From a virus, in IMG/VR virus record IMGVR_UViG_3300037067_022543: DNA of 39,289 nt. One strand, given 5' to 3'. Numbering within the stretch: the stretch's first letter is position 1; every line of letters begins with the position of its first letter. A model generated the notes under the pieces. It saw nothing but the letters and a program-made list of their open reading frames with translations. It was not told where the DNA came from and searched no databases. Of the stretch, positions 2,432 to 25,226 are shown in pieces. Position numbers and translations under genes: made by a program.

Positions 2432-3388
2432 CTAATTTTTGACAGTATTTTTAAAATCATTATCATAATCTCTTATCTTTTTTAGAACAACGCTTTCAGC
2501 TTCGTTATATATTGATTGAATATCTTCATCATAAAAATTAAAAATTCTATCTTCAAAACTTGTTGAATCTATCCTATTATAAAGTCTTCCTTTAAAGTTG
2601 GGAATATCTTTACCATAAATATGCCAAGAATCAGCTTGCCAGTTAATTCTGCCCATTTCTATTTGCCTTCCCATTTTTTCTTTAAGCTTATCAAGAATTA
2701 GAATTTTATTAAATTGAGTAAGACCAAAAATATTCATAAAGAAGGCACCCCAGGAATCATTTGATCTAATTCTTATATTGCAATTAAGCCACAATATTTT
2801 GTCATCATCTTCTAAAAGTCTATACCAAAGTGATTGCAAGCATGGAGGGTCATAAACATTCATGTCAAGCATTGGCATCCAAGTGATCATTTGGGCTTGG
2901 CGAGTAAATGGCTGTTTACAAAGTTTATCTACAACTAATTCTATTTGATTAATGTTGTAGTCTCCGGCTTCAATTGATTCGGGTTTATTTTGTGAATAAG
3001 TTCTCATTTCTTTCCACGAACCCCAATTGGCAAGTCTTTTGTGATAGGTATATTCCCATCTTGTATCTTCTTTAACATTAGCGTCTTTTACCCAGTGATC
3101 TTTATACCCCAAAAGTTCCATAACATATTCCCTCAAGTCTTCTATTCCGCCTGGAAAAGCCTTATGGATCATGGGATCTTTTAGTGGATTAAGCACAGTT
3201 ATATTAGAAGTGCTATCAATACTAGGTTCATCACCTGGTTTATCATATTGGGTTGGCATTCTAATACCTTCTTCATACAATTTAACAAGGGCTGCTTCAT
3301 ATGCTTCTGCTATAGTTTCTTTTTCTGTGTACAATACGGGCATATTCTTCATAATATATTCCTTATTTTTAACCGTTATACCATCCAT
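2432..3388 (-). CDS. thymidylate synthase-family enzyme (ThyA / dUMP or dCMP hydroxymethylase superfamily), divergent and N-terminally extended
   Basis: RQAQMITWMP...DPPCLQSLWY (ThyA R-x-WNP...PPC catalytic Cys) and IRSNDSWGAFFMNIFG (cf. QRSCDxFLGxPFNIASY). ORF track start at 3391 is TTG; ATG at 3386-3388 used. Overlaps upstream gene by 20 nt. Confidence 0.75.
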   Translation of the reverse strand: MDGITVKNKEYIMKNMPVLYTEKETIAEAYEAALVKLYEEGIRMPTQYDKPGDEPSIDSTSNITVLNPLKDPMIHKAFPGGIEDLREYVMELLGYKDHWVKDANVKEDTRWEYTYHKRLANWGSWKEMRTYSQNKPESIEAGDYNINQIELVVDKLCKQPFTRQAQMITWMPMLDMNVYDPPCLQSLWYRLLEDDDKILWLNCNIRIRSNDSWGAFFMNIFGLTQFNKILILDKLKEKMGRQIEMGRINWQADSWHIYGKDIPNFKGRLYNRIDSTSFEDRIFNFYDEDIQSIYNEAESVVLKKIRDYDNDFKNTVKN

Positions 3389-3701
3389 CAATCATTATAT
3401 CAACTTCAATATCTTTTCCTAATTCTGGAATAGCATTTATCAATTCTTTTTTTACGCTTTCTTTGAATTGCCCCAAAGTTTCATTTTCATTCATTTCTGA
3501 AATTGATTTGCCAAGGTATTCCATACCATAATCTGAATTTGAATAGAAACTAAAACCATTTTCTTCTAAATCTGTTTTGCAATTAAATTCTTTATTTAAA
3601 CTAATCGTTTTATTTTTAACATCTTTATTATATGAATTAATACCAACAATGCAAAAACTTGTGGAGCTTGAATTACTTATAAAACCTTCTCTAATTTTCA
3701 T
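3369..3701 (-). CDS. member 1 of MKIREGFVSNSSSSSF-family (110 aa)
   Basis: N-term MKIREGFISNSSSTSFCIVGI; AAAGGA RBS; C-terminal part homologous to member 3 (YLGxS, ExLGxEFKExVKK, W..G end). Confidence 0.8.
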   Translation of the reverse strand: MKIREGFISNSSSTSFCIVGINSYNKDVKNKTISLNKEFNCKTDLEENGFSFYSNSDYGMEYLGKSISEMNENETLGQFKESVKKELINAIPELGKDIEVDIMIDGWYNG

Positions 3702-3738
3702 GTTTTATTATCCTTTATTTATATAATCATTACAAATG

Positions 3739-4113
3739 CTATTCTGACAACAGTTCTTTGAATTCTTTTAAGCTAATATCAGTTCCATCGTAATCATATC
3801 CATCATCTCTATTAAAACAAAAAGCTGTGGAATTTTGTGGTATTGTAAAATTTGATTTAAATTCTAAACCATCATAAATTTCCATAAAGGACTCATAAAT
3901 AGAAAAAATATTCCCTTTATTATTTTTATTGATAAAATCAGCAATTTTTTGATTTATTTGAACAACGGTTTCTCCTTCACCACAGTTAAAATATCCAGAA
4001 GTTAAATATATCTTTTTATCACCAATCTTTTCAGGAATCTCTGACAACTTTTTGCCTATAATTACGAAACTTGATGAACTTGAGTTTGAAACGAAACCTT
4101 CTCTAATTTTCAT
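3739..4113 (-). CDS. member 2 of MKIREGFVSNSSSSSF-family (124 aa)
   Basis: N-term MKIREGFVSNSSSSSFVIIGK; AAAGGAG RBS. Confidence 0.8.
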   Translation of the reverse strand: MKIREGFVSNSSSSSFVIIGKKLSEIPEKIGDKKIYLTSGYFNCGEGETVVQINQKIADFINKNNKGNIFSIYESFMEIYDGLEFKSNFTIPQNSTAFCFNRDDGYDYDGTDISLKEFKELLSE

Positions 4114-4130
4114 GTTTTTTCTCCTTTATA

Positions 4131-4475
4131 TTAACCATCACGCCATGCTTCTTCATAAGTACCTAGTTCGACACTCTCCCCTAAAATTTGTTCTATTTGT
4201 TTTTTTACATCCTCTTTAAATTCTTTACCTGTTTGATTATCCTTAACATCGCTCCATGAACGTCCCAAATAATATGTGTCTCCATATGGAACATGAAATG
4301 AAAGATTGAGTTTTTGCTTTGAAATTAATTCTTCGACTAGTTCATAAATACCACAATCTTCATCATAGTAGTTATTTTTTTTTAACTTTTCTATAATGTC
4401 ATCATCCAATATTGCCCCAAAAATCAAAAATGACGACGAACTCGAATTGGAAACGAAACCTTCTCTAATTTTCAT
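4131..4475 (-). CDS. member 3 of MKIREGFVSNSSSSSF-family (114 aa)
   Basis: N-term MKIREGFVSNSSSSSFLIFGA; AGGAG RBS. Confidence 0.8.
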   Translation of the reverse strand: MKIREGFVSNSSSSSFLIFGAILDDDIIEKLKKNNYYDEDCGIYELVEELISKQKLNLSFHVPYGDTYYLGRSWSDVKDNQTGKEFKEDVKKQIEQILGESVELGTYEEAWRDG

Positions 4476-4504
4476 ATGTTTTCTCCTATTTTGTTAGAAT
4501 CTAT

Positions 4505-4525
4505 AACATATTGCTCACATATGTT
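4505..4525. promoter_or_regulatory. perfect 7-bp inverted repeat AACATAT-N7-ATATGTT upstream of family member 3
   Basis: aacatat tgctcac atatgtt in the 144-nt intergenic gap ahead of the three tandem paralogs; possible operator. Confidence 0.25.
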
Positions 4526-4619
4526 TAATTTTTAATAACACTTATTACATAACTTTGAGCAAGACTCCAGCAACTACCAACTTATTATTAACAACCTTTG
4601 AACTCTTTAATTATTTCCT

Positions 4620-5798
4620 TTACATTAATATCGGATTAGAAGAAGAGAAAGCTTTTGCCATTGATTTATCATCAAGATTGCATGAAAATCTATTTACTTC
4701 TTCTTTAAAAGACTTTTCATCTGTAATTCTATTCATAACAGACCATCCAATGTTGGGTTTAACAGAATCATTGGTAGTTTCCATACCAATAAACCCAGAA
4801 ATAAAACTCATAGGATAAATTTCTTCATAATATTTCCAAATAAAAGGAACAGATGACAAACCATTAGGAAACTTATCAGTTGTTAGAAGACTTTTACTAT
4901 TTGCACCAACTTTTTCTGACCTAATAAATCCACTTGAACTACCTAAATAACTTTCTCCAACTCTATTGAAATTACCGTTAATATAAGGGAAAAAACTGCA
5001 AATATGACCGCTAATATATGGTCCGCCACTCATGCCACGAAATTTGAAAAACGACTTCCAAAATTCAAGATCAACCTGGCCTTGTGAAGCTTTAATAAAT
5101 TGGTATAATACTGGAGCAAGATCGGTAATCCACCAATCAATATTATAGTCTTCAAATTTGTTAAATTTTACTAAAATATCTGCCCAATCTTCAGAAGATC
5201 CTTCAAGAGTTATTTCTGGAATTCCGCACATAGTACAGACTCCAAAATCAAAATAGCTTTTTACAACATCCATCATAGCAATTTCAAAAGCAACCTTTGA
5301 AGTAGCATCTGTAGTTGAAAAATTACCAATTATATTATTGTAATTTGTCTCTCCAATAAAGTTTTTAATTTGAGATGTAAAATCAGGAAAAACATTAGCC
5401 CAATCGTTGTCTTCTCCTTTTATGAAATTGTCCCTTATAACAAGTAATGATTTCTTTTCATCAAAGTTTACAAATTTTTTACGAAGACTTTCTGAATTTT
5501 CACTAACATGAATAGCAAGTTGCTGAATTATTGCCAACCAAATAATGTCTGGAGACAAAACTAAACGTTTATGCTCCTCAAATGCTTTCATGGCAGAAAA
5601 AACAAAGGGATTATATGGGGATGGAACAATATTTTTTTGGGGATCGCAAACAGCTTCAATTAGTTTTCTAACTTCAATTCTACCATTATTATAATCTTTA
5701 TTATTGTTAATAACTAAAGCAACAGCTTCCTGCATTTTTACTCTGTCTTTACAAGGAGATGAAACTATTTCACAATCATCGACTTTAAATGTATTCAT
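4620..5798 (-). CDS. hypothetical protein (392 aa)
   Basis: long ORF, ATG start; no motif I can name with confidence. Confidence 0.65.
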   Translation of the reverse strand: MNTFKVDDCEIVSSPCKDRVKMQEAVALVINNNKDYNNGRIEVRKLIEAVCDPQKNIVPSPYNPFVFSAMKAFEEHKRLVLSPDIIWLAIIQQLAIHVSENSESLRKKFVNFDEKKSLLVIRDNFIKGEDNDWANVFPDFTSQIKNFIGETNYNNIIGNFSTTDATSKVAFEIAMMDVVKSYFDFGVCTMCGIPEITLEGSSEDWADILVKFNKFEDYNIDWWITDLAPVLYQFIKASQGQVDLEFWKSFFKFRGMSGGPYISGHICSFFPYINGNFNRVGESYLGSSSGFIRSEKVGANSKSLLTTDKFPNGLSSVPFIWKYYEEIYPMSFISGFIGMETTNDSVKPNIGWSVMNRITDEKSFKEEVNRFSCNLDDKSMAKAFSSSNPILM

Positions 5799-5801
5799 AT
5801 A

Positions 5802-6314
5802 TCATCCTTTTTGCAATATAAACTTTTGCTTGCTATATCGAATTTTAGACCAACCAGTTTCTTTCAATTTATTATACAACAATTTCTGTAACTTTAAAAT
5901 ATCTTCTTCGTTTTTAAAATAACTATCTTTAGCAGGATATAATTCAACCATCAAATAACATCCATTTTCTGCCACTCTATTTATTTCTCTACCCAAAAAA
6001 TTTCTTTCATATTTATCAAGAAACATAAATATATAATTGCACAAAATAAGACTGACAGACTTACTTTCTAAAGGAATAATATCTCTGCCTAAAACTGTTT
6101 TTAACCCAAAATCTCCTGCCATATCTAACGGGAAAATTTTACTAAAACCAATGGAATTTAGATAAATAGTATTTCTACCATTTCCGCATCCACAATCAAC
6201 TACAGGCTTTGATTTTATGGCATTAAAAAGACCTATGTTTTTTGCAAGATAAGGGCATGGGCTTTTTCTTCCACATCGAATGCACCATCTATTATTTAAA
6301 TATTTTCTGCTCAT
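5802..6314 (-). CDS. small class-I SAM-dependent methyltransferase with N-terminal Zn-ribbon
   Basis: motif I VVDCGCGNGRNTIYL; CIRCG...CPY at N-term. Confidence 0.7.
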   Translation of the reverse strand: MSRKYLNNRWCIRCGRKSPCPYLAKNIGLFNAIKSKPVVDCGCGNGRNTIYLNSIGFSKIFPLDMAGDFGLKTVLGRDIIPLESKSVSLILCNYIFMFLDKYERNFLGREINRVAENGCYLMVELYPAKDSYFKNEEDILKLQKLLYNKLKETGWSKIRYSKQKFILQKG

Positions 6315-6315
6315 T

Positions 6316-6702
6316 TCAACTATTTTCTTCTATAGCTATACCAATAAAACCGTTTCCACTTTGCAAATGAATATTATTAATTTTATCTGCCAACTCTATG
6401 CCAGGTTTATCTTTTATATTACCTTTATTTTCAAATTCGTTAGCATAATGTAATGCCCACTTATAAGTATCTCCGAATAAGCTTCTTTGTCCATGAGCAA
6501 AACCTATATTAAAAATTTCATCCTTTGTTGCACCATGTTTTTCAAGGACTTCATGCAACCAGAATCCAACGCACCAAACTTCTTCAAAACGGTTTCCTGG
6601 TTCTTTCATAAATTCAGGAACTTCTTTATTTGATATTAAAGAACTTATTAATTCTTTTCTATGTTCTGAAACCCAAGATTTCGCTTCATCAATTGTATGC
6701 AT
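6316..6702 (-). CDS. hypothetical protein
   Basis: 128-aa ORF, ATG start. Confidence 0.55.
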   Translation of the reverse strand: MHTIDEAKSWVSEHRKELISSLISNKEVPEFMKEPGNRFEEVWCVGFWLHEVLEKHGATKDEIFNIGFAHGQRSLFGDTYKWALHYANEFENKGNIKDKPGIELADKINNIHLQSGNGFIGIAIEENS

Positions 6703-6741
6703 TTTTATCCTTATTATTTAGACTTACGCCCTTTTTTCGTA

Positions 6742-7014
6742 TTATTTCTTTCTCCTCATGCAAACTCTAAAATCATCAGGTTTATTGCGTATCCATCTAA
6801 TCCACTTATTTATGTTTTCGTTACTTAAAATTTTTTCAATTGTATTATATTCTTTTGCTAGTTGTTTATTGGAAAATAAATTATGGATCTGGTCTCCACA
6901 ACTGCAACAAACAAATATTGTTCCCATACCTGCACCATGTTTTTCTTTAGGGATAAGATGGTGCTTTTCCAAATAATCTTGCGGAGTTTTCCTTTGACAA
7001 ATTTGACAGTTCAT
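6742..7014 (-). CDS. HNH endonuclease (small)
   Basis: CQICQ...EKHHLIPKEKHG...CCSCGDQIHN. Confidence 0.7.
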   Translation of the reverse strand: MNCQICQRKTPQDYLEKHHLIPKEKHGAGMGTIFVCCSCGDQIHNLFSNKQLAKEYNTIEKILSNENINKWIRWIRNKPDDFRVCMRRKK

Positions 7015-7254
7015 TTTTTTTTATTTTTATTGATTTTGACAAACATAGTTTCCTAAATCAATTTCTGTAAATTCTCTCTCTGTATTTATATCATCAGTAT
7101 AAATTGCAGGAACAGTAACTATCATGCGAATATCCTGACCAGACTCTGGATACCCCAGAAAACATCAATTGCTTCTAATGTTGCGTTATACTTCTTTAAA
7201 AGCGAACACAGTTCTGCACGAAATTCTGTCTCAACCTGAAATTTTGTTTGCATA

Positions 7255-7560
7255 TTAATCTAATTCTTTTTTGAATTTATTGAAAGATTTAGTAAATTTA
7301 TTATAAAAAGAATGCATATCTGGGGCAGTCCAAATAATAGATTTAATTAATTCCAATCTTTGTTCATCAGTTAACTCTGTGAATAAAGATCTAATATCAT
7401 CAATTGTCATAGGGACTTCTTCATCATTATCAATAGCATCATTAATAATTGTGGAAATAACATTTAGTTTCTTTTCATTATTGCAACTATCAAATAATTC
7501 TCCTATTTGATACATTTTAATATCCAATTTTGTTTGACAATGTTTTTCTACATCATTCAT
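7255..7560 (-). CDS. hypothetical acidic protein
   Basis: 101-aa ORF, GAAGGAG RBS; preceded by a long GC-rich leader. Confidence 0.6.
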   Translation of the reverse strand: MNDVEKHCQTKLDIKMYQIGELFDSCNNEKKLNVISTIINDAIDNDEEVPMTIDDIRSLFTELTDEQRLELIKSIIWTAPDMHSFYNKFTKSFNKFKKELD

Positions 7561-7594
7561 AACTCATCACTCCTTCAAAATAATATGGCCAACA

Positions 7595-7800
7595 GCGTTG
7601 ATTCTCTAGTAGCCAGGATTTTGTTTTTCAATCAACATTTGTCTCTTGTCTTTAACAAGGCGATTCGTCATCGCTGCACCAACCCGACCATCTTGACCTG
7701 CTCACCGTCCATGGTCTGTTTGGCTTGCTGGTTCAGTAGTACAAATGAGCGTTAGCTCTCCTACCTTAAGCAGTTCCAGTCCTGAGCTTCCTCTATTGAC
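7595..7800 (-). other. GC-rich non-coding island (candidate structured RNA / leader)
   Basis: about 200 nt markedly GC-richer than surroundings, like the tRNAs and tmRNA here; no coherent ORF in any frame; contains local hairpins (GCGAT gacga ATCGC). Confidence 0.3.
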
Positions 7801-7822
7801 CATTATGAAATTTGGAAATAAT

Positions 7823-8257
7823 TTATTTTTGTATTATTGGAGATCTTTGGGCATCAAATTTTGGCTGTATTCCTGCTTTCAAAATTTCAATTATCTTTTC
7901 TTCAGTAAGATTGGTGACACCTGATATAAAGATATCTGTTCTCCATCTATAGTTGTTTTTAAGAGTATCATAATATTTTAATGTGGTTTTATCTGTAATG
8001 TCAGAAATAGCAGTTAATCCACCAGCAACCATTTGAGCAACAATTTCCGGAGTAAAAAAAGCCCTAGCATTATTATTTGAATCAACTATAATGAAATTTT
8101 CCCTATAAATATTAGAAGCAGGGATAGACCCCTGTTGAACTATTATAATGGTTGGTTCTTTAGTGTGAGAAACCCTAATGGGATTGGGAAAGTTAGTTGC
8201 ACATCCAGCCAAAAAAACAATTATAAAAGAAATTAATAAAACCATCATTTTTTTCAT
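7823..8257 (-). CDS. predicted lipoprotein
   Basis: MKKMMVLLISFIIVFLAGC: signal peptide + lipobox LAGC; AAGGA RBS. Confidence 0.7.
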   Translation of the reverse strand: MKKMMVLLISFIIVFLAGCATNFPNPIRVSHTKEPTIIIVQQGSIPASNIYRENFIIVDSNNNARAFFTPEIVAQMVAGGLTAISDITDKTTLKYYDTLKNNYRWRTDIFISGVTNLTEEKIIEILKAGIQPKFDAQRSPIIQK

Positions 8258-8287
8258 TTTTTTTATCCTTTTTTATTGCATTATAAA

Positions 8288-8776
8288 TTATTTCTGGCAT
8301 TCTACAATAAATAACTTATCCTTAAAAAGTTTTGGAAGTCTGTTGATTATAGGATAATTTTTATTATATTTTTCTGTAATTGTTTTAGAATCTGTAGAAA
8401 TAATTTTAAAACCATTCTTCTCTAAAATTGGTACGATTTCTTCTAAATTAGTACTACCGATTATATTTCCTGTCTTGTGTTTAGTGCCAATTTTTCTCCA
8501 TTGATATTTTTTATCATTTTCTTCTTTTAGCAAAAAAATACCCCCGGGGCATAAAATCCTATATATTTCTTGTAAATTTCTATCGTAATCTTCTTTTTTG
8601 CAATACATTAAAACATGTTGAACAAGAACTAATTCTGCAGAACCATCTCCATAAGGAATTTTTGAATTCCATCCGTCCCAAGGCTTTACTCCAGAAAAAA
8701 GTTTCCATCTAGGATCTAGATTTTCAAATTCGTTCAATATATTATTCTCGCTACCAAGATTTATTTTTAAAAGCAT
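8288..8776 (-). CDS. methyltransferase-fold protein (degenerate motif I)
   Basis: ELVLVQHVLMY...RILCPGGIFLL resembles post-I/II region of class-I MTases. Confidence 0.45.
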   Translation of the reverse strand: MLLKINLGSENNILNEFENLDPRWKLFSGVKPWDGWNSKIPYGDGSAELVLVQHVLMYCKKEDYDRNLQEIYRILCPGGIFLLKEENDKKYQWRKIGTKHKTGNIIGSTNLEEIVPILEKNGFKIISTDSKTITEKYNKNYPIINRLPKLFKDKLFIVECQK

Positions 8777-8786
8777 AATCTATTCC

Positions 8787-9161
8787 TCATTCAAATATTT
8801 CTATGCCCTTAATCTCGCTAATTTTACCATTATACAAAAGCTGTTCTTGCACTTCTCCTTCTGAAGAAATATTTCCGACTAGAATAATCTTGCCTTGATT
8901 AATTGCTTTTTTCATCCTGCTATAATTTTTTTTCAAATATTCATCTTCTTTTAAGATTTTATCTATTTCTTCATTTTGTTTTAAACCATAATTACACTTA
9001 AAATAAAAATTTAGTTCATCTATTGTTTTTATATATTCTCTGGCATAACTGTCTAAATCTATTTCTAAAGAAAGTGTTACTTTTGTTTCTTTCTTGTTAT
9101 TAATTATTGCAAAAAAACTAGAACTGCTAGAGTTACTCACAAATCCGTTTCTAATTTTCAT
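8787..9161 (-). CDS. member 4 of MKIREGFVSNSSSSSF-family (124 aa)
   Basis: N-term MKIRNGFVSNSSSSSFFAIIN; AAAGGAA RBS. Confidence 0.8.
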   Translation of the reverse strand: MKIRNGFVSNSSSSSFFAIINNKKETKVTLSLEIDLDSYAREYIKTIDELNFYFKCNYGLKQNEEIDKILKEDEYLKKNYSRMKKAINQGKIILVGNISSEGEVQEQLLYNGKISEIKGIEIFE

Positions 9162-9513
9162 TTTTTAACTTTCCTTTTTTGTCATTGTATTTTAATTTTT
9201 TTACGGTTTCATTAGTTTCCAATCTAATGTCATACTTTTTCTTAAAATTATTAACTCTTTTTTCATCTAAACAGCAACACTTTTTGAACTTCTTATTGCT
9301 TCCACAAGGGCAATAGTCGTTACCCCTAATTCTTGGTTTAAAGTTGGCAGATGTATCTTCTTTAAATCCATTTTCATTCATGTTTTCTGTTGCCTTCTGC
9401 TCAATTTCATCCCCTGTTCCTTGCGATTGTTCGCTGACATTTTGGAGATTAAGTTCTTTTTCAGACTTTGAATCTTCTTTATTGCTACTGAATAATGTTT
9501 TCCATGTTTTCAT
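9151..9513 (-). CDS. SEC-C motif-containing protein
   Basis: CPCGSNKKFKKCC near C-terminus (SecA-C-like metal-binding motif). Confidence 0.55.
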   Translation of the reverse strand: MKTWKTLFSSNKEDSKSEKELNLQNVSEQSQGTGDEIEQKATENMNENGFKEDTSANFKPRIRGNDYCPCGSNKKFKKCCCLDEKRVNNFKKKYDIRLETNETVKKLKYNDKKGKLKNEN

Positions 9514-9884
9514 TTTTTTACCTCTTTTTTATAATCACTTTCCCATTTTTTACTGAATATTTCTTCCTGAATATCTGATATTTTTATGCCCCAAAACTTT
9601 TCCATATAATCTCCTATTTTTTCTGCCAAAATTCTTGCTGTTAAATGTTCGCCTAAAAAATGAGGTTTGCCTTCTTTATAATAAAAAATTGTTATTGTAA
9701 TAGTTCTTCCATAAGATTCACTTTGAAGTATTCTTTGTATATATACTGGTTCAACATGCAAAAAATCATTAAATTGCTTTTCAACTTGGCTTGCAGTACC
9801 AGTAAAACATTTACATGTTAATTGGCAAGCACTATTTTCTTCACAACTTGCGTAATTTGTTAAATTTAGATTAGATTCTTCCAT
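9510..9884 (-). CDS. hypothetical protein
   Basis: 124-aa ORF, ATG, stop/start overlap. Confidence 0.55.
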   Translation of the reverse strand: MEESNLNLTNYASCEENSACQLTCKCFTGTASQVEKQFNDFLHVEPVYIQRILQSESYGRTITITIFYYKEGKPHFLGEHLTARILAEKIGDYMEKFWGIKISDIQEEIFSKKWESDYKKEVKK

Positions 9885-9896
9885 AATTTTACTTTC

Positions 9897-10265
9897 TTAC
9901 AATTTCTGTCCTCTACACTCTATTGCTTCCCATTTAAAACTTTTTGATTCTCCGCCATCTCTCAAAATGTAATCGTAAACATTACCTATTAAAGTGCCGT
10001 CTTCATCACCGAAAGACATATAATTATCACCAACCGATATGTTATACTTATTATATGTATTTTTTAAATTTTTAGCAGACTTTATTAAATTAGCATGTGT
10101 ATAACTAGCATCTTGTTTATACCAGTCATATCTATCTAAAAACTTTTCTATCAAATCCTTGTTTTCCTTAACAAAATCAACAATTGTCAATTTTTTATTG
10201 GTTTTGTTTGTAATAATAAAACTAGTTGAGCTAGAATTAGAAACAAAGTTTTCTCTAATTTTCAT
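9897..10265 (-). CDS. member 5 of MKIREGFVSNSSSSSF-family (122 aa)
   Basis: N-term MKIRENFVSNSSSTSFIITNK. Confidence 0.75.
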   Translation of the reverse strand: MKIRENFVSNSSSTSFIITNKTNKKLTIVDFVKENKDLIEKFLDRYDWYKQDASYTHANLIKSAKNLKNTYNKYNISVGDNYMSFGDEDGTLIGNVYDYILRDGGESKSFKWEAIECRGQKL

Positions 10266-10286
10266 ATTAATTGCTTTCTACTTTAT

Positions 10287-10499
10287 TTAATCTAAACCCC
10301 AATCAGGATGCAAATCTTTTAATGCTTTGTCATAAGCATCGTCAGAACCTATGAACTCATCTTGTGTATCCCAATCATTACCTTCCAATGCATTTATCAC
10401 TCCTTTGTAAAGACGATATCTGACTTGATCATCTTTAATCTCATCTTGAAACAAATCAATAATTTCTTGCATTACTTGACCACCAGATGCCCATCCCAT
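10287..10499 (-). CDS. small acidic protein immediately downstream of radical-SAM gene
   Basis: 70 aa, Asp/Glu-rich; position analogous to a partner of the rSAM enzyme. Confidence 0.5.
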   Translation of the reverse strand: MGWASGGQVMQEIIDLFQDEIKDDQVRYRLYKGVINALEGNDWDTQDEFIGSDDAYDKALKDLHPDWGLD

Positions 10500-10519
10500 A
10501 TGTTTTCTCCTTATAATTT

Positions 10520-11629
10520 TTATACATCAAACGCAGGACATTTTCTACATCCAGAACATTTGTCTTTACTATTCAAGAGATTATTTCTCCATTGAACAAC
10601 TTTATCAGAAAACCACAAGTCTTTGAAAAAATCAAAACCATCTTTGGTCAAATCAATCCCATCTTGCCAATCTCCATAAAGACCGCAACTTCCTTCTGTA
10701 AAAGAGCATGGGTAGAATTTTCCTTCAACATTAATATATGAACTAAACAATCCACTTTCACAAGGCTCACTTCTAGTTAAAAATTCATTATAATATTTAT
10801 GCCCTTTAACAGAATTCAAAAACTTTGGAGCAGAACAGCTATCCATACCAAAACTAATATTATGTTCCAAGCAAAAATTAACTAAATATTTAAATTTATA
10901 TTCACTTAATGGAGTATATTTTTCTCCACGACCTTTTTTCTTTAAAGACAAAAGCACTATAGCATTCAACCCTTTTAAACGACTATCTGTAAGAATATCA
11001 TTAAGCGTTTCCTTACAGTCTTCAAAAGTTTGTTCTGATATCATGAAATGCATGTTTATTTGCTTCATGCCTAGATCGGTTAATCTTTTGATAGAATCAT
11101 AACAAACATTCTTATCTGCGTAACGAGACACTGCAACAGCACCAGCTATTTCTGAAAGCTTTTTAGCAGTATCATCAGAAATATTAGCAACAGTAATATT
11201 TGGAACAATTCCCTTACTTCTTGCATATTTCATCATATCAAATATTTCTGGATTAGATTGGCATTCGCTATCAGCCCCCAAAGCTATTTGTGTCAAAAAC
11301 AAAGGATATCTGTCTATAACTTTCTTAAACGTTTCCAAGCTCATATTTTTACCATTAGGAGTATTTGATTTGTAACAAAAAGAGCACGGTCTTTTAACTC
11401 CATTTTTATCAGGAATGCCATTACAAATAGTAGTAACTTCAATATCAAGTATTTCTGGAGCTGGGGCAAAATCAGGATCATCTTTTTCTGTTTTTCCACA
11501 TCTCTCAAAACGGCCACTTATCTTATTGAAGTTATAATTATAGTTTTCTGATCTAACCTTTTTCATAAAAGGATAATCATAAACAGTAAATTTAGATCCA
11601 TCAATAAAATTATATGTCTGTGTTTTCAT
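10520..11629 (-). CDS. radical SAM enzyme with C-terminal SPASM/twitch-like Cys cluster
   Basis: TTICNG-x9-RPCSFCY (Cx12Cx2C variant of CxxxCxxC), LGADSE (GGE-like), C-terminal C..C..CSGCRKCP. ORF-track start 11650 is TTG; first ATG at 11629. Confidence 0.6.
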   Translation of the reverse strand: MKTQTYNFIDGSKFTVYDYPFMKKVRSENYNYNFNKISGRFERCGKTEKDDPDFAPAPEILDIEVTTICNGIPDKNGVKRPCSFCYKSNTPNGKNMSLETFKKVIDRYPLFLTQIALGADSECQSNPEIFDMMKYARSKGIVPNITVANISDDTAKKLSEIAGAVAVSRYADKNVCYDSIKRLTDLGMKQINMHFMISEQTFEDCKETLNDILTDSRLKGLNAIVLLSLKKKGRGEKYTPLSEYKFKYLVNFCLEHNISFGMDSCSAPKFLNSVKGHKYYNEFLTRSEPCESGLFSSYINVEGKFYPCSFTEGSCGLYGDWQDGIDLTKDGFDFFKDLWFSDKVVQWRNNLLNSKDKCSGCRKCPAFDV

Positions 11630-11653
11630 AATTGTATATAAAATAATCAATAC

Positions 11654-12412
11654 TTAGTGATGACTAACGGTTATATGCGGTAGACTTTTAAATATGTCTC
11701 CATGTTCCATTGTACAGTAAAATTCTCCGTCATTATCGCTATACTCAAAAATACATATATGCCTACCTTTATTATCATCCATAAACTTTTTAGCGTCAAT
11801 ATTTGAAAGTTTCTTTCTTAAAGAATATTGTTTTTTCCAAATTTTGTTTTGTTCGTTAAAATATTTTGTTTTGAAATCTTTATATTCTTTATTTGTGTTA
11901 CGCCATTTGTTATACTTTTCATACCATTCATCTTGTTCTTTTTTAGAAAGTTCAGAATGGTTTTTGGGGCGTCCCATTCCATATTTATTAATAATTTCTT
12001 CTTCTTTTTTCCAATGACTTTCTGATAATTCATCATATTTAACAAAAAGTTTTGCTAATTCTTCAAGAATTTCCTCATCATTACCATAATATTTATCTTT
12101 ACCAACCCATCCATATTCCAAACATCTACTAAACATATTGTTGCTATGCCTTGTGTAATAATACCTATTTGAAAGTAATTCTGCTATTTTTTCAAGAGTT
12201 GCTTCTTTGTTTTTAATATTTCTACTAATATCATCAAAAACATTTTTAACAACATCTGATGTGGCAGCTCTATTGTCATAATAATTAATATTTTTATCAA
12301 GTTCCATGTGCATCATTTTACTTAAATCTTCTATTGATTCTGGATTTTTAGGGAAGGCAACAATAAAAGAAGAACTACTAGAATTACTTACAAATCCATT
12401 TCTAATTTTCAT
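11654..12412 (-). CDS. member 6 of MKIREGFVSNSSSSSF-family (252 aa, extra C-terminal domain)
   Basis: N-term MKIRNGFVSNSSSSSFIVAFP; AAAGGAG RBS. Confidence 0.8.
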   Translation of the reverse strand: MKIRNGFVSNSSSSSFIVAFPKNPESIEDLSKMMHMELDKNINYYDNRAATSDVVKNVFDDISRNIKNKEATLEKIAELLSNRYYYTRHSNNMFSRCLEYGWVGKDKYYGNDEEILEELAKLFVKYDELSESHWKKEEEIINKYGMGRPKNHSELSKKEQDEWYEKYNKWRNTNKEYKDFKTKYFNEQNKIWKKQYSLRKKLSNIDAKKFMDDNKGRHICIFEYSDNDGEFYCTMEHGDIFKSLPHITVSHH

Positions 12413-13260
12413 TTTTTCAACTCCTTTAAAAACTTGCGAAAACTACTTTTTGTTGGTTTATTTGTTTTTCCTTCTCCGGTAGGCATATGAGTTGGAAGAT
12501 CAGGAATACCTATTATCGCATCTGGATATAACTTTTTCATTTGTTCACGAAACGACTTTCTATCTAAAGATTCATTGGATTCTGGAGTTGAATCTGCATC
12601 TATTTTATTAATTTCTTCTTCCAAAACATGACATTTATAGGACTTATTAAAAAAAACTCCATTGGCATGAACAAACTTAATTCTTTGTTTTAATTCCTTT
12701 AATTTATCTTCTCCTTTTGCTTCTGATAACCTTACGATTCTAGCTATTTTATAATCATTATCTTTTCTTTCAAATTGGACAATGTAATTAGTATCAAATG
12801 AAAAAAACATAATAATTTCTTTCAATAAATCTCCCATACCTTCATTGAAATCATTGTGCATACTAGTGAAATAAGAAAACTCAATTCCATCTTTAGAAAA
12901 CTTTGTTTTGATTCCACTGTGCTTTAAAACAAACTTAACTAATTTCCCATTTGTTGAACATTTATCAAGATCATCAAGTTCTTTTTTACAACGTAAAACA
13001 TAATCATTATTAATCTTTTGCATAAACTTAAAAGTGCTATTTTTACATTCTTTAAAATAAGTCTTACTATATTTTTTATTATCTTCTATAGCTTTTTTAA
13101 TTCTATCTTTTATTTTACGATTAATAATTCTCTTGTTAAAATAATCGAACCAATAATTAGAAACCATTAGGTTCACAAAATCATTGAACTTTAAATCATT
13201 AACTCTAAAAAAATAACTACTGGAACTAGAATTGCTTACGAAACCTTCTCTAATTTTCAT
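12409..13260 (-). CDS. member 7 of MKIREGFVSNSSSSSF-family (about 283 aa)
   Basis: ORF track starts 12 codons upstream (13296); family consensus places start at internal ATG 13258-13260 (MKIREGFVSNSSSSSYFFRVN). Confidence 0.75.
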   Translation of the reverse strand: MKIREGFVSNSSSSSYFFRVNDLKFNDFVNLMVSNYWFDYFNKRIINRKIKDRIKKAIEDNKKYSKTYFKECKNSTFKFMQKINNDYVLRCKKELDDLDKCSTNGKLVKFVLKHSGIKTKFSKDGIEFSYFTSMHNDFNEGMGDLLKEIIMFFSFDTNYIVQFERKDNDYKIARIVRLSEAKGEDKLKELKQRIKFVHANGVFFNKSYKCHVLEEEINKIDADSTPESNESLDRKSFREQMKKLYPDAIIGIPDLPTHMPTGEGKTNKPTKSSFRKFLKELKK

Positions 13261-20860: not shown

Positions 20861-21766
20861 TCAAGAATTTTTAGCAGCCAGATTTGCCTTAATCATATCT
20901 TCAAAAACATTCATCATTCCTTCAGGAGAATGTGGCATCATTATAACTGTATTCTTTGAATCTGCTCCTATCTTATTAAGAGTATCGAAATATTGAGTTA
21001 CTAAAACAAGATTCATAACTTCTGAAGTATCTGCTTTAGTTGCAGATTTAAAAGCTTCAACAGAGTCTTTCAAACCATTAATTATAGCTGTTCTTTGTTT
21101 GGCTATGCCTTCTCCCTGCAATCTTTTACTTTCAGATTCTGCTTCAGCTTTTTTAACAATTAAAATCTTTTCTGCTTCTCCGTTTGCTTTAGCAGCTTCT
21201 TGCAATCTTTGAGCTTCATTAATTTTATTCATTGCATCTTTAACCCTAGAATCTGGATCAACATCAGTAATAAGAGCTTTAATAATTTCAGTTCCATATT
21301 GAGCCATATTCTCGCTTAATTCTTTAGCTATAGCATTAGCAATATCATCTTTCTTTGCAAATACATCATCAAGTTTAAGTTTGGGAACTTCTGCTCTAAC
21401 AACGTCAAAAATATATGACGATACTTGTTTACTAAAATTAGTTAATTTGTAATAAATATCATATACCTTGCTTGGAATTGCTCTAAATTGTACTGATACT
21501 ATAATTTTAATAAAAACATCATCTTCTGTTTTCGTCTCAATTGGTACATCTAATTGTTGATCTTTTAGACTAGAATAACTAACAATTTTTTCAACAAAAG
21601 GTATTTTTAAATTTAATCCTGGATTTGCCATCCTATTAAATTTACCAAATCTTTCTATAATAGCTATAGTTTGTTGTCTTACAGTAAAAAGAGACATAAT
21701 AGCTAAAATTATACAAAACACAGCAAATATAGATAAAACAACAATCATAGCAATTCCTTCAATCAT
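20861..21766 (-). CDS. SPFH/band-7 (stomatin/prohibitin/flotillin-like) membrane protein
   Basis: N-terminal TM helix then IIERFGKFNRMANPGLNLKIPFVEKI and long coiled-coil C-terminus typical of SPFH. Confidence 0.85.
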   Translation of the reverse strand: MIEGIAMIVVLSIFAVFCIILAIMSLFTVRQQTIAIIERFGKFNRMANPGLNLKIPFVEKIVSYSSLKDQQLDVPIETKTEDDVFIKIIVSVQFRAIPSKVYDIYYKLTNFSKQVSSYIFDVVRAEVPKLKLDDVFAKKDDIANAIAKELSENMAQYGTEIIKALITDVDPDSRVKDAMNKINEAQRLQEAAKANGEAEKILIVKKAEAESESKRLQGEGIAKQRTAIINGLKDSVEAFKSATKADTSEVMNLVLVTQYFDTLNKIGADSKNTVIMMPHSPEGMMNVFEDMIKANLAAKNS

Positions 21767-21781
21767 TTTTTTTCTCCTTAA

Positions 21782-22066
21782 TTATTTATTTTTTTCTTTT
21801 CTAATTTCTTGTGCTTTTTTATAAACATCTTTAATCTCTATCTCTCTTTTGCCTTGTTTAACAAAAAACATTAGGGCATTAATCCCACAATTAACTCCAT
21901 CATCAAAAACTTTATCATAAACATTAGTTTTTAATAATAATTGCTGTTCAGGAGAACTAACTTTTTTGTTAAAGTTAATAGCAAAAATAATTCCTGCAAT
22001 ACCAAATGCCATCAAAATTAAAAAAACAAACAAAAGCAATTTACCACCTTGTGAATGATTAACCAT
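21782..22066 (-). CDS. NfeD-like short membrane protein (SPFH partner)
   Basis: TM segment LLLFVFLILMAFGIAGIIFAI plus C-terminal small beta-domain; ORF-track start 22132 is TTG; ATG at 22064-22066 carries strong AAAGGAG RBS. Confidence 0.55.
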   Translation of the reverse strand: MVNHSQGGKLLLFVFLILMAFGIAGIIFAINFNKKVSSPEQQLLLKTNVYDKVFDDGVNCGINALMFFVKQGKREIEIKDVYKKAQEIRKEKNK

Positions 22067-22115
22067 CGCGTCTCCTTTGATTAACATTATACAAAAAAAT
22101 AATATAAATAAAAAA

Positions 22116-22616
22116 TTATTTATAAGCGTCAATCATTAGCTTTTTAACTTCATCCATAACTTCTTTCATCCTTTTGGTCATAGACGGCTTAAAAGGCTTT
22201 CTCAAAGGAAACATATTAGCTTCTGCTGGAGTTCTGTTGTTTTTCTTTTTGTTACAATAAGAACAAGCGGTAGTCATATTTTCATACGTAGTTTTACCAC
22301 CTCGTGATTTTGGAAGAACATGATCTGTGGTCAAATCATTTTTATCAGTGATATGCTTTCCACAATATTGACAAATATAATCATCTCTTTCCCAGGTCAA
22401 TTTATTAGAATATTTCATTTTTCTATTATATGCTCTAACAAATCTAAATATTTTAATAATTAATGGGACTTGAATGATTTCAGAAACCGTATGAATAACA
22501 TCCTCTGCATATTTTACAACTTCTGCTTTTTTTTGTTCTATTAATGATAATGCTCTATTAAGAGAGCAAGAACTAATACATTCATAACCGCTATTTAAAA
22601 CATATACTCTATGCAT
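22116..22616 (-). CDS. HNH endonuclease (McrA-like)
   Basis: CQYCGKH...TTDHVLPKSRGG...NMTTACSYCNKKK; AAAGGT RBS. Confidence 0.75.
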   Translation of the reverse strand: MHRVYVLNSGYECISSCSLNRALSLIEQKKAEVVKYAEDVIHTVSEIIQVPLIIKIFRFVRAYNRKMKYSNKLTWERDDYICQYCGKHITDKNDLTTDHVLPKSRGGKTTYENMTTACSYCNKKKNNRTPAEANMFPLRKPFKPSMTKRMKEVMDEVKKLMIDAYK

Positions 22617-22820
22617 AACCTGTTTTACCTTTATATAAAAAAAATACCATTAGTCAAACCACCAAAAATGGCAAATAAGATCCTGTTGGAAATTATATGC
22701 CTGCAATGCAAGACCCGGATGTATACTGGTCATGCAGCAAACCATCTTTTTGTGTTTTAACTAACGGCAATATCGCATTCATCTTATTATACCTAATTTT
22801 TACATTTTTCCCTTTTAAAT

Positions 22821-23188
22821 TGGTGGACCCGGAGGGATTTGAACCCTCGTCTTGATAAATTTCAAAAATGGCATCTACATGTTTATATGATTTTACTATT
22901 TTAGGCAAACCATCAAGCCCACCAGAATCCTTTCTTCTGGTTAGTCAGCAAACGTCTTTCCGTTTCGCATTTGTCAGGGGTCTTATCTTCACCCATTGAA
23001 CTCTAGTGATCGTCACTACTCTAGGCTACCAGAGATATCTTGCCTATTTCGCGGACAGCTGGTTAAGCAGCCATCAAATAAGAAGCTTTGTCAGCTCTTA
23101 ATGTTTTTAGTGGATTCTTTACGGTGCCAACCACTATCACCTACATGCATCCATAATCTCTTCTTATCAATCGAAACCGGTCGGGCCC
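22821..23188 (-). ncRNA. ssrA: tmRNA (transfer-messenger RNA), tag reading frame ADKASYLMAA-stop
   Basis: 5' GGGCCCGACCGGTTTCGA...; 3' GGGTTCAAATCCCTCCGGGTCCACCA; acceptor GGGCCCG/CGGGTCC with G3:U70; PK1-like GGTTGGC..CGTAAA; frame GCT GAC AAA GCT TCT TAT TTG ATG GCT GCT TAA (cf. E. coli ANDENYALAA). Confidence 0.85.
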
Positions 23189-23211
23189 TTTCTATATTTA
23201 TAATACTTCAT

Positions 23212-23412
23212 TTACATATCAGAAACCAGTACCAACTCCAAAGCTTTCAAATGTCCTTCTGGAGTAGGATTGCCAGAAATATGAGTATGTCCAGTATACT
23301 TTTTTAAAAATTCAATTTTTGACAGCGTATCATTTTTAATCTTCTTTAAAGCATATAAAGAATTAATATATTTTCTTTCAATAGAACCAATTTTGACAAC
23401 GTTTTCTTTCAT
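23212..23412 (-). CDS. small hypothetical protein
   Basis: 66 aa; AGAGGAG RBS; ends 24 nt before tmRNA 5' end. Confidence 0.5.
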   Translation of the reverse strand: MKENVVKIGSIERKYINSLYALKKIKNDTLSKIEFLKKYTGHTHISGNPTPEGHLKALELVLVSDM

Positions 23413-23429
23413 TTTTAACTCCTCTATAA

Positions 23430-23717
23430 TTATTCTTTAATAAAAGTTTCCAATCCTTTTTCAAAAATCTTTTTAAAAACATAAACTCCCATTTGTTTAT
23501 TATCAAAACCTTCTGTTTCTAGAGAATCTATTATTTCACTAAAAGCTATTTTTATTGCTTTAATATGCTTTTCATCTGACAACTCTACTCTTTGTGCTAA
23601 AATTGTCAAGCTTTTAAATTCTAATTGTTGATCATATCTAACAGCGTCTATAATAGCATCCATTTTTTCTACATTTAATTCTAAATATGCACCATCTTTT
23701 CCAATTTCTATGCTCAT
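23430..23717 (-). CDS. hypothetical protein
   Basis: 95-aa ORF. Confidence 0.55.
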   Translation of the reverse strand: MSIEIGKDGAYLELNVEKMDAIIDAVRYDQQLEFKSLTILAQRVELSDEKHIKAIKIAFSEIIDSLETEGFDNKQMGVYVFKKIFEKGLETFIKE

Positions 23718-23718
23718 A

Positions 23719-23946
23719 TTAATTTATCTCCACATTTTTAGTATCAACAACAATGCTAACCCATTCTTCGTTAATAAAACCATCAAATCCATCGTCAAAA
23801 CCATCTTTATGACTTCCTAATTTTTTCGTTACCTTACCAAACCCAATATCCCTAAAAGCCTTGACCATAAGATTAGCGATTTTATTTGGTGAAATTGATG
23901 AGCAACCACTGATTGTGATTTTCATGACAGGTTTCTTGCAAATCAT
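23719..23946 (-). CDS. hypothetical protein
   Basis: ORF-track start 23967 is TTG; ATG at 23944-23946 has strong AAGGAG RBS. Confidence 0.5.
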   Translation of the reverse strand: MICKKPVMKITISGCSSISPNKIANLMVKAFRDIGFGKVTKKLGSHKDGFDDGFDGFINEEWVSIVVDTKNVEIN

Positions 23947-23947
23947 A

Positions 23948-24718
23948 TTATTTCTCCTTGTTTCCAAATAGATTAGGGGGCATATTGTTAGCTATTCTAT
24001 TTTCTGATATTTTATGATATTCTTTTGATATTTCAGAACCAACATAATTTCTATTATTATTTAAGCAAGAAATTGCAGTAGTTCCTCCACCCATAAAAGG
24101 ATCGTAAACTAAGTCTCCTTCATATGAAAGTAATTTAATACACATATCTGGCAAATCTGTATGAAAATTTGCTTTTGTAATTTCTTGACTTTGAGTTCTT
24201 AATTTCCATATTCCGCTACATCCCATCATAAATTCGTCTTTAGAAATCTTGCTATTGCCTTCTTTAATCTTTTTCCATACATCTTTATATCCTACCATAA
24301 CAATCTCATAAGGATTATAAATATATGGAGATGATGGCTTCAACCAAGAACCCCATGCAGTATACTTAACTCTATGAGAATCAACCCAAACTGGAGAACC
24401 AAATATATTTATTCCAACTTTATTAAACAAATTATAAAACTCAGCATAAGGAGAAATTCTTTTTTTATTATATTCTATGCCCATTTCCAATAATATATTA
24501 AGGCATATTCTACCATCAGATTTTAGAACTCTTTTTATTTCTTTCAACCATTTTTCACACCAAGACAAATAATCTGACCAATCTTTATTATCATTATAAA
24601 TATCATATTTAATGCCACAATTATATGGAGGGCTTGTTACTACTAAATCTACAAAGTCATCAGGCATCTTTGACAAAGTAAGTAAACAGTCTTCGTTATA
24701 AATTTTATTAATTTCCAT
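23948..24718 (-). CDS. DNA methyltransferase (amino-MTase, beta-class: N4-C or N6-A)
   Basis: motif IV SPPY near N-term, motif I DPFMGGGTT near C-term. Confidence 0.8.
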   Translation of the reverse strand: MEINKIYNEDCLLTLSKMPDDFVDLVVTSPPYNCGIKYDIYNDNKDWSDYLSWCEKWLKEIKRVLKSDGRICLNILLEMGIEYNKKRISPYAEFYNLFNKVGINIFGSPVWVDSHRVKYTAWGSWLKPSSPYIYNPYEIVMVGYKDVWKKIKEGNSKISKDEFMMGCSGIWKLRTQSQEITKANFHTDLPDMCIKLLSYEGDLVYDPFMGGGTTAISCLNNNRNYVGSEISKEYHKISENRIANNMPPNLFGNKEK

Positions 24719-24723
24719 AACTT

Positions 24724-24951
24724 TTACATTAACCCACCAATTTTGAACTCTTCTTTACACAAATTACAAACCCGAAACCATCCCGACTTTTCTGGATGTT
24801 TGCGATCGTTTCTCATCAAACAAGCAAAGGTCGTTTTCTTATGACAAGCTGGGCAAAATTTGTTTCTTATATTTTTTTGAATAAAGCGGATCTCCTTTAA
24901 TTCTTCCTTTGTTCTTAAATGGACATCTACTCCGCAAGGTGCTACTTTCAT
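24724..24951 (-). CDS. zinc-ribbon protein
   Basis: CPACHKK...CNLCKEE; AAGGAG RBS. Confidence 0.55.
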   Translation of the reverse strand: MKVAPCGVDVHLRTKEELKEIRFIQKNIRNKFCPACHKKTTFACLMRNDRKHPEKSGWFRVCNLCKEEFKIGGLM

Positions 24952-25039
24952 TTTGTCTCCTTATTTTTTCTATATGCAATGGAGTTTCATACTTACCAAC
25001 ATCCAATACAATGCAGGAGTATGAACTTCTCACAAAAAG

Positions 25040-25216
25040 CTATTTAACAAGCCTTTTAGCAAGTTTAATAGAATCATCAATGCTTTTTACTTTCTCAGCT
25101 GACATAATTCCACCAATTTCAATTTCCATTCCGTTTTCCAGAGTTGCCACAATATAATCATGACAACCATAAACCTTAATAATTTTCTGTCCTATAATTT
25201 TCTTTTCGCCCTTCAT
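25040..25216 (-). CDS. small hypothetical protein (58 aa, MKGEKKIIGQKIIKVYGCHDY...)
   Basis: hand-translated; ATG 25214-25216 with AGGAG RBS, TAG stop 25040-25042. Confidence 0.45.
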   Translation of the reverse strand: MKGEKKIIGQKIIKVYGCHDYIVATLENGMEIEIGGIMSAEKVKSIDDSIKLAKRLVK

Positions 25217-25226
25217 GATAATTCTC

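Follow-up and report, generated by a model that had tools for sequence, protein, structure and literature searches.

Enzymes of the radical S-adenosylmethionine (rSAM)-SPASM type, including AtsB/anSME, FxsB and WgkB, act on conserved short motifs within peptides or whole proteins (PMC10114670). They take a hydrogen from such a motif and then, aided by auxiliary clusters, finish an oxidation or a crosslink; StrB/SuiB, PqqE and MftC are further examples, FxsB and WgkB form cyclophanes, and AtsB/anSME can use Ser, abstracting its C-beta hydrogen to yield formylglycine (PMC10114670). In conflict systems, conserved terminal peptides, located at the C-terminus of highly variable precursors, adjoin rSAM-SPASM genes (PMC7159879). 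Here, we analysed the IMG/VR virus record IMGVR_UViG_3300037067_022543, a stretch of 39,289 nucleotides (nt) hereafter referred to as the window, which encodes seven proteins opening with the same 16-residue peptide (the tag) and, among their genes, an rSAM enzyme. The seven genes are an expansion, within the window, of a phage protein family that is very large, uncurated and defined by this near-invariant N-terminal peptide, and rSAM genes are tightly and specifically co-localized with tag genes. The tag is probably both the recognition and the modification site of the co-encoded enzyme, one enzyme thus serving many substrates; we infer the action of the enzyme on the tag, as well as the chemistry performed, from this genomic association. 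No published description of the pairing was found in the literature, though one may exist.

Seven genes of the window share an N-terminal tag

Seven minus-strand open reading frames (ORFs) of the window begin with MKIR(E/N)(G/N)F(V/I)SNSSS(S/T)S(F/Y), a near-invariant stretch of 16 residues. Their coordinates and opening peptide agree with those given in an initial annotation made from the sequence alone, and a six-frame scan of the window revealed no eighth copy. One 20-mer version of the tag is MKIRNGFVSNSSSSSFIVAF. The seven members and the rSAM gene are listed below; the sequence that follows the tag is called the body, and body clusters are those described in a later section.

3369..3701, minus strand: member 1, 110 amino acids (aa), tag MKIREGFISNSSSTSF; body of cluster 0, shared with member 3
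3739..4113, minus strand: member 2, 124 aa, tag MKIREGFVSNSSSSSF; body alone in its cluster (242 bodies sampled)
4131..4475, minus strand: member 3, 114 aa, tag MKIREGFVSNSSSSSF; body of cluster 0
8787..9161, minus strand: member 4, 124 aa, tag MKIRNGFVSNSSSSSF; body of cluster 4
9897..10265, minus strand: member 5, 122 aa, tag MKIRENFVSNSSSTSF, with Asn rather than Gly at position 6; body of cluster 12
10520..11629, minus strand: rSAM enzyme, 369 aa, flanked by members 6 and 5; C-terminal domain reduced and SPASM/twitch-like
11654..12412, minus strand: member 6, 252 aa, tag MKIRNGFVSNSSSSSF; body of cluster 2, directly upstream of the rSAM gene
12409..13260, minus strand: member 7, 283 aa counted from the tag start, tag MKIREGFVSNSSSSSY; its stop overlaps the member 6 start

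Eleven tag positions (M1, K2, I3, R4, F7, S9, N10, S11, S12, S13 and S15) are identical in all seven members. Pairwise comparison of the 16 tag codons showed 30–42 identical bases of 48 and 4–10 synonymously differing codons, with Ser codons alternating freely between the TCN and AGY families. This synonymous divergence between copies indicates selection on the peptide and not a DNA repeat, as the initial annotation had argued, and rules out a recent DNA repeat or duplication as the source of the tag. Chance is likewise excluded, because the same 15–16-residue string recurs seven times and every time exactly at the start codon.

Two details of the gene models required adjustment. A Shine–Dalgarno sequence had been assigned to each copy; it is clear in five of the seven genes and weak for members 5 and 7. 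Member 7 had been given 295 aa, a length that is possible from an ATG at 13296, 12 codons upstream; we prefer the start at 13260, because the longer form overlaps the preceding gene and the family tag sits at residue 1. The member 6 and member 7 gene pair is also present on an independent Logan contig.

Extent of the tag family

The tag had been described as matching no known family, yet it does fall in a catalogued one, phrog_7397 (PHROGs, function unknown). The hidden Markov model of this family was matched by all seven window proteins, with every match beginning at residue 1 (member 6, E=1.8e-19 over two stretches; member 2, 3.5e-7; member 1, 0.0085; member 5, 0.013) and limited to residues 1–20 or 1–30 in members 1, 4, 5 and 7. 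Scans of the seven proteins against Pfam, NCBIfam and PADLOC returned nothing significant (in PADLOC-DB v2, no match for members 1–5 and marginal, chance-level matches for members 6 and 7), and a PDB sequence search with member 6 gave no match. With Pfam and NCBIfam empty and most tag-less bodies devoid of detectable homology to one another, the tag does not appear to be the first strand of a common annotated domain, an explanation that the initial annotation had itself raised.

A 30-position N-terminal profile built from the seven window proteins retrieved 21,938 representatives (50% identity) among 1.84 billion proteins at E<=0.001. These proteins nearly always start the tag at residue 1, and the same register was kept in 141 of the 148 top exhaustive matches. 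At ~22,000 clusters at 50% identity, the tag family ranks among the larger protein families without functional annotation, and it occurs in well-studied cultured phages, including RB16, RB43 and many T4-like phages of Klebsiella, Enterobacter and Cronobacter. A degenerate DNA version of the tag, run as a pattern against IMG/VR, identified at least 120 stretches, mostly on contigs of 30–550 kb, with up to six exact tag matches per stretch among the matches listed. A relaxed protein pattern, independent of the start codon, occurred 304 times in these motif-anchored viral loci, and in 293 cases the match is placed exactly eight residues behind a start Met.

Family-wide, position 5 is the variable site of the tag (N in 91, T in 40, S in 32, K in 27 and Q in 22 of 276 proteins), and G6 is replaced by Cys, Ser, Asn or Arg in nine of the 276. 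The census pattern fixes N10 and S11, and the invariance of both residues in that census is partly built in; in a homology-based alignment free of the pattern, N10, S11, S12, S14 and S15 are all invariant. Some database proteins (P0152–P0158, P0173, P0177 and P0227) contain two tags, the second of which always begins with its own Met-Lys, indicating that two neighbouring tag genes were called as a single ORF. Such fusions could stem from sequencing errors or, in some of these phages, from reassigned stop codons.

The rSAM gene and its coupling to tag genes

The rSAM gene lies inside the interval that the initial annotation covered but was missed there. Its start is either an ATG at 11629 or a TTG at 11650, the ATG being in agreement with the alignment of homologs. 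The product matched phrog_7293 (function unknown) with E=8.9e-118, whereas its matches to Pfam Radical_SAM (E=0.005) and SPASM were weak; PADLOC-DB v2 returned no match for it. In the window copy the cluster-binding motif is CX12CX2C, owing to a 9-residue insertion; its last two Cys are invariant among homologs, and several homologs display the canonical CX3CX2C followed by YK (e.g. CDHGCAFCYK and CPNNCRFCYK). Four further Cys are invariant in the C-terminal half of the phage enzymes (DSC, EPCE, FPCSF and RxCP); they would be enough for one auxiliary cluster, of the twitch or reduced-SPASM type, and the phage homologs also weakly match the twitch domain of BtrN. Among solved structures, SuiB (5V1Q, E=3e-13) and PqqE come closest to these rSAM enzymes.

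The association with tag genes was recovered from both directions. Starting from the tag, an rSAM homolog was present in 41 of about 120 short motif-anchored viral loci (among the matches listed), more often than any single body family, and it was the sole recurrent tag-less family in the loci listed, the next best occurring in 10. The rSAM gene and the tag genes invariably share a strand, with a tag gene frequently beginning right behind the rSAM stop codon. Starting from the enzyme, a locus search with one rSAM sequence found nothing and an alignment query was required, which yielded 143 viral relatives; 80 loci were kept, and tag ORFs were counted within 10 kb. At least one tag ORF was found in 60 of the 80 loci, with 200 tag ORFs on the rSAM strand and none on the opposite strand, and the nearest tag ORF lay less than 1 kb from the rSAM gene in 49 of the 60 tag-bearing loci. 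Downstream of the rSAM gene, tag genes numbered 8.5 per 10 kb in the first kb, then 5.8, 2.8, 2.2 and 0.9, and zero beyond 7 kb; in total, 162 were located downstream and 37 upstream. From this downstream excess and the decay with distance it follows that the rSAM gene typically heads the tag-gene array.

In addition, rSAM clade and tag variant co-vary. Enzymes with a full SPASM domain (CX2CX5CX3C) pair with the T9/T14 variant V-T-N-S-S-S-T-S (19 of 25 ORFs), and the reduced-SPASM phage enzymes pair with S9 tags (341 of 342 ORFs). Of 50,697 cultured-phage records, 173 contain the rSAM gene and 174 a tag protein of the RB16p106 type, and the two sets break down by genus almost identically; in these phages the two genes lie 20–25 kb apart. 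CPT_Margaery166 is one cultured-phage homolog of the rSAM.

Diversity and predicted structure of the bodies

Homologue searches returned 315 relatives for member 6 and 31 for member 3, which share the same N-terminus and have wholly different downstream motifs. Alignment of the two subfamilies with hhalign covered only residues 1–18 (E=9e-16), and removal of the first 20 residues reduced the probability to 0.1–0.2%. The view of a conserved N-terminal tag on otherwise variable proteins, already expressed in the initial annotation, is therefore borne out by a profile–profile match confined to residues 1–18. More broadly, 242 distinct tag proteins from viral loci fell into 86 BLAST clusters once the tag was removed, and among the 18 larger clusters only 1 of 153 profile–profile pairs reached 90% probability. 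Body types include forms with Zn-ribbon-like CxxC pairs, an IDHQS family and minimal forms of 80 aa. Clusters 1 and 8, abundant in the viral loci, carry paired CxxC/CPxC motifs resembling Zn-ribbon or treble-clef folds, and cluster 5 has a conserved, enzyme-like YGYIDHQS motif; none of these three clusters is represented in the window.

Among the window proteins, members 1 and 3 are homologous to the end, as first noted (38% identity, one BLAST cluster). Cluster 0, which they share, has the signature YxGxS..ETxxxFKE..W[YR][DN]G, conserved in member 3 as YLGRSWS..DNQTG..FKE..EEAWRDG. Member 6 is a relative of RB16p111; the extra C-terminal domain previously ascribed to it is instead an internal helical hairpin (~residues 113–213) within a small alpha/beta core, and its subfamily conserves a C-terminal block, YSDNDG..MEHGDIF..ISHH. 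A common beta-strand followed by an acidic/Gly-rich loop, seen by eye in all bodies, was supported neither by hmmsearch nor by profile–profile comparison.

AlphaFold2 models were obtained for members 6 and 3. The member 6 model has a predicted local distance difference test (pLDDT) score of 92.4 overall, with an average of 48 for residues 1–10 and 92 for residues 11–20; the member 3 model scores 76.7 overall and below 50 for residues 1–14. In both, the first beta-strand starts at about S13–F17, and the Ser run leads straight into it. The models suggest a conserved yet unpacked N-terminal tail, which is the expected appearance of a partner-binding segment. Fold searches yielded no informative neighbour.

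These data bear on the alternative in which the tag forms the conserved opening element of one very rapidly evolving domain superfamily, such as a Ser-rich ligand or metal loop preceding strand 1, that acts unmodified in the same pathway as the rSAM enzyme, for instance by binding or processing its small-molecule product. The direct passage of the Ser run into strand 1 in both models is what this alternative would predict, and weak links between bodies point the same way: hhalign gave probabilities of 30–39% for three body-cluster pairs, and members 2 and 5 align over ~80 residues to the member 6 profile. The termini offer a further hint, in that [DNH][GH] at the extreme C-terminus is enriched in tag proteins (19% versus 3% in background ORFs), as though both termini might meet. 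However, this C-terminal pattern holds in only 7 of the 86 clusters and was rejected as a family-wide feature, and most bodies lack detectable homology even at the profile–profile level and have clearly different architectures. Moreover, residues 1–10, the most conserved part, are unpacked against the fold in both models, and near-absolute conservation of the tag beside free drift of the remainder is unlike an ordinary first strand. A single unmodified domain is thus unlikely, and the bodies are better described as small, fast-diversifying phage accessory proteins of apparently unrelated sequence.

A cellular version in defence operons

The same DNA tag pattern, applied to one genome per species across 185,579 species, identified 69 stretches, mostly on contigs of metagenome-assembled genomes (MAGs), which were examined as 8-kb loci. 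In this independent collection, an rSAM gene was present within the 8-kb locus in 36 of the 69 tag loci. Large chromosomal contigs with a tag cassette were found for Veillonella parvula, Acetatifactor muris, Lachnobacterium bovis, Sulfuricurvum and an Acidobacteriota MAG. The bacterial cassettes occupy the following positions in their loci:

L215:2423-7189
L222:5009-7757
L202:1061-7997
L242:166-5206
L236:2451-7877

The tag protein of bacterial chromosomes occurs as one copy of 137–138 aa, in an operon with overlapping stop and start codons. The cassette order is a ~136-aa protein, the tag protein, a full-SPASM rSAM and then either a ~302–319-aa protein or SIR2-HerA, the latter variant being that of Sulfuricurvum. 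In the Firmicutes cassettes (Veillonella, Acetatifactor and Lachnobacterium), Avs1a/LmuA-like MBL and trypsin-STAND (Avs-like) genes lie upstream. No relatives of the ~136-aa and ~302-aa partners were found in the phage loci. The trio of ~136-aa protein, tag protein and rSAM may constitute an undescribed defence-associated module. The Ophion defence system (rSAM+PHP+PRTase) is unrelated.

The cellular rSAM clearly matched Pfam Radical_SAM (E=1e-12), contains the full CX2CX5CX3C motif and passes the curated SPASM cut-off (38.2 versus 27 bits). Among curated families it comes nearest to the peptide maturases MftC, WgkB and PqqE, with scores far below all three family cut-offs, and in PADLOC-DB v2 it gave only a generic pVip match to the radical-SAM core. 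The body cluster of member 4 is homologous throughout to the cellular 137-aa tag protein (hhalign without the tag, 98.1% probability, E=1e-13, 109 columns), and member 4 would thus be the phage counterpart of the single cognate substrate in the bacterial cassettes.

Proposed modification of the tag and its alternatives

The initial annotation proposed a shared recognition or modification site with the Ser run as the target. The co-localized rSAM gene lends this proposal strong indirect support, while the modification itself is predicted from gene neighbourhood. We propose that the module M-K-I-R-x-G-F-V-S-N-S-S-S-S-S-F-h-h, of 16–18 residues, would serve as a portable handle for a peptide maturase of the SPASM/twitch type. 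The flexible basic/aromatic tail (residues 1–10), together with the Ser run leading into the first beta-strand, would dock in the rSAM enzyme; the 5'-deoxyadenosyl radical would then take a hydrogen from a residue of the F7–S15 segment, and the auxiliary Fe-S cluster would finish the oxidation or crosslink. Candidate chemistries are, in order of preference, an intramolecular C–C or C–O crosslink via F7/S9 or the Ser run, a Ser-to-formylglycine-type oxidation and an epimerisation. In this respect, three-residue cyclophane motifs have an aromatic-x-x form to which F7-V8-S9 conforms, and position 9 co-varies with enzyme clade.

Several observations weigh against modification of the tag by the enzyme. 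On the side of the tag, the crosslink candidates show some substitution (six close relatives of member 6 have Leu in place of F7, and member 5 has Asn in place of G6), and S11–S15 open a confident beta-strand in the member 6 model, so that any modification at these residues would need to come before folding. On the side of the enzyme, the phage-type rSAM stays below the Pfam gathering scores for Radical_SAM and SPASM and reaches no curated equivalog family. Coupling is also incomplete, as 20 of the 80 rSAM loci lack any tag gene within 10 kb and the two genes are ~20 kb apart in RB16/RB43-type phages; several of the 20 tag-less loci belong to phages of this type, in which the tag genes RB16p111 and RB16p106 lie ~20 kb off. 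The co-occurrence in cultured phages comes from essentially one clade, and the loci in general are phylogenetically non-independent, so that the counts overstate the number of independent events. Finally, genomic association is also compatible with a partnership in which the tag protein is not a substrate.

One such partnership would make the tag a docking peptide and the variable bodies adaptors or regulators that recruit the rSAM enzyme to diverse targets (nucleic acids, host proteins or small molecules) or switch it. The co-localization, strand and co-variation data fit this arrangement equally, the exposed, low-confidence tail suits a partner-binding segment and the hyperdiverse bodies look like target-recognition modules. 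Nevertheless, the known SPASM/twitch enzymes nearby (SuiB, PqqE, MftC, WgkB and anSME) act on the peptide that they bind, and a strictly invariant polar Ser run suits a reaction site better than pure docking. Adaptors that bind an rSAM enzyme through a peptide tag would, to our knowledge, be without precedent, and we regard this arrangement as improbable.

T4 internal proteins (IPI-III, Alt) carry an N-terminal capsid-targeting peptide of ~10 residues on diverse, fast-evolving small proteins encoded in plastic regions of large myovirus genomes. A comparable rSAM-independent signal, whether for T4-like capsid targeting, for secretion or the membrane, or for degradation or stability, is very improbable here: despite the formal analogy, and despite an I-R-E at residues 3–5 of five of the seven window copies that resembles the T4 prohead-protease site (L/I)-x-E, position 5 varies family-wide and I-R-E is not conserved, sequence inspection reveals no hydrophobic h-region or core, which excludes a Sec or Tat signal, the rSAM linkage and co-variation are left unexplained, and the same tag and rSAM occur in bacterial chromosomal Avs-like and SIR2-HerA operons with no virion genes nearby, leaving the packaging or targeting role first suggested for the tag unsupported.

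A glycyl-radical site was also considered and is unlikely. R4-x-G6-F7 is one residue short of R-V-x-G-[FWY], G6 is not invariant and the enzyme is of the SPASM/twitch type rather than the PflA/NrdG type.

Functional implications

The tag proteins are plausible anti-defence or host-takeover effectors. A role in conflict is suggested because they are small, hypervariable, multi-copy and encoded in accessory regions of large phages, and because their cellular counterpart resides in defence operons. With somewhat less than even confidence, we extend the proposed modification of the tag to an apparently undescribed phage maturation system, in which one rSAM would place a crosslink, aldehyde or D-residue on a universal 16-residue handle carried in each genome by dozens of accessory proteins and, overall, by over 20,000 sequence clusters, the same pair being wired into Avs-like and SIR2-HerA operons. 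Such a system would constitute a shared currency of phage–host conflict and a new modification class on folded proteins instead of peptides that are made on ribosomes and modified after translation (RiPPs).

If the enzyme does modify the tag, radical SAM maturation would reach from peptides and sulfatases to the phage-protein arsenal, and the new modification with its compact 16-residue recognition tag could be of biotechnological use. The hypervariable arrays of small phage genes would then be tied to a biochemical step that bacteria also use in their defence islands. Even if the tag proved not to be a substrate, the coupling of enzyme and tag defines a functional module that organizes thousands of 'hypothetical proteins'.

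Other genes of the window

The tag-gene array downstream of the rSAM gene is broken at 4620-8776 by unrelated accessory genes, and further genes adjoin or interrupt it:

2432-3391: divergent thymidylate-synthase-like gene (Pfam Thymidylat_synt, E=6e-8), whose TTG start overlaps the member 1 end by 23 nt
4620-5798: DUF4419 protein (E=3e-76)
5802-6314 and 8288-8776: SAM-dependent methyltransferase-like genes
6742-7014: small HNH endonuclease
7823-8257: putative lipoprotein with a lipobox, MKKMMVLLISFIIVFLAGC
9151-9513: 120-aa protein with a SEC-C-type zinc-binding motif, CPCGSNKKFKKCC (Pfam SEC-C, E=3.5e-5), between members 5 and 4

The presence of the HNH gene suggests that a mobile-element insertion split the tag array. 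For the product of 2432-3391, a base-modifying activity of the dCMP or dUMP hydroxymethylase type is possible. The region 20861-39275 encodes typical large-phage functions, exclusively on the minus strand, at 26–33% GC and with a uniformly negative GC skew:

20861-21766, minus strand: SPFH/Band 7 protein
23948-24718, minus strand: N6/N4 DNA methylase
25227-26927, minus strand: RecJ-like DHH/DHHA1 protein
28945-31278, minus strand: ClpB-like double-AAA+ ATPase
34923-36581, minus strand: DnaB-like helicase

A megablast search against cultured phages gave no match. In the AT-rich DNA, a promoter and terminator scan was uninformative, with 72 promoter-like sites (63 expected) and 2 terminator-like ones (3 expected).

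Comparison with known systems

The FXSXX-COOH/FxsB systems resemble the tag–rSAM pairing in having a short terminal peptide on variable precursors, a dedicated rSAM-SPASM enzyme alongside and conflict neighbourhoods; F7-V8-S9 of the phage tag even has the F-x-S form, although F7 is not invariant. In contrast to the C-terminal FXSXX peptide, the phage tag lies at the extreme N-terminus and spans 16–18 residues with a Ser5 run, and phages encode the great majority of these systems, a locus holding up to 13 putative substrates. The N-terminal position of the conserved peptide excludes membership of the FXSXX-COOH/FxsB group, and no curated Fxs model was reached, FxsB being absent from the listed NCBIfam matches of the rSAMs.

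With anSME, the phage system shares an rSAM bearing SPASM-type auxiliary clusters and, in place of a small peptide, a full-length protein that bears a short motif; a separate recognition domain is absent. The tag proteins, by contrast, are not sulfatases and have no common fold, and the C-terminal domain of the phage enzyme is reduced (four invariant Cys). An anSME-type substrate was rejected: the (C/S)-x-(P/A)-x-R motif is absent, SNSSSSSF has no Pro or Arg in register and no Pfam sulfatase domain occurs in the bodies; no anSME model is among the listed NCBIfam matches of the rSAMs.

The SPASM RiPP pairs (SuiB/StrB, PqqE, MftC and WgkB) provide the closest enzymes by sequence, and there, too, substrate genes adjoin the maturase and a conserved recognition sequence stands beside a variable one. 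The phage substrates would differ in being folded proteins of 70–300 aa and not cleaved, exported peptides, and in that the conserved tag appears to be recognition and reaction site at once. The phage loci yielded no PqqD-like recognition element, protease or exporter.

Unlike the T4 internal proteins, the tag has no conserved protease site, is linked to an rSAM gene and also occurs in non-viral defence operons; with position 5 variable and the tag present in those cellular operons, membership of the T4-type capsid-targeting proteins was rejected. Among these comparisons, the tag–rSAM system is likely to be an rSAM maturase with motif-bearing substrates, a known kind of system in an apparently undescribed form.

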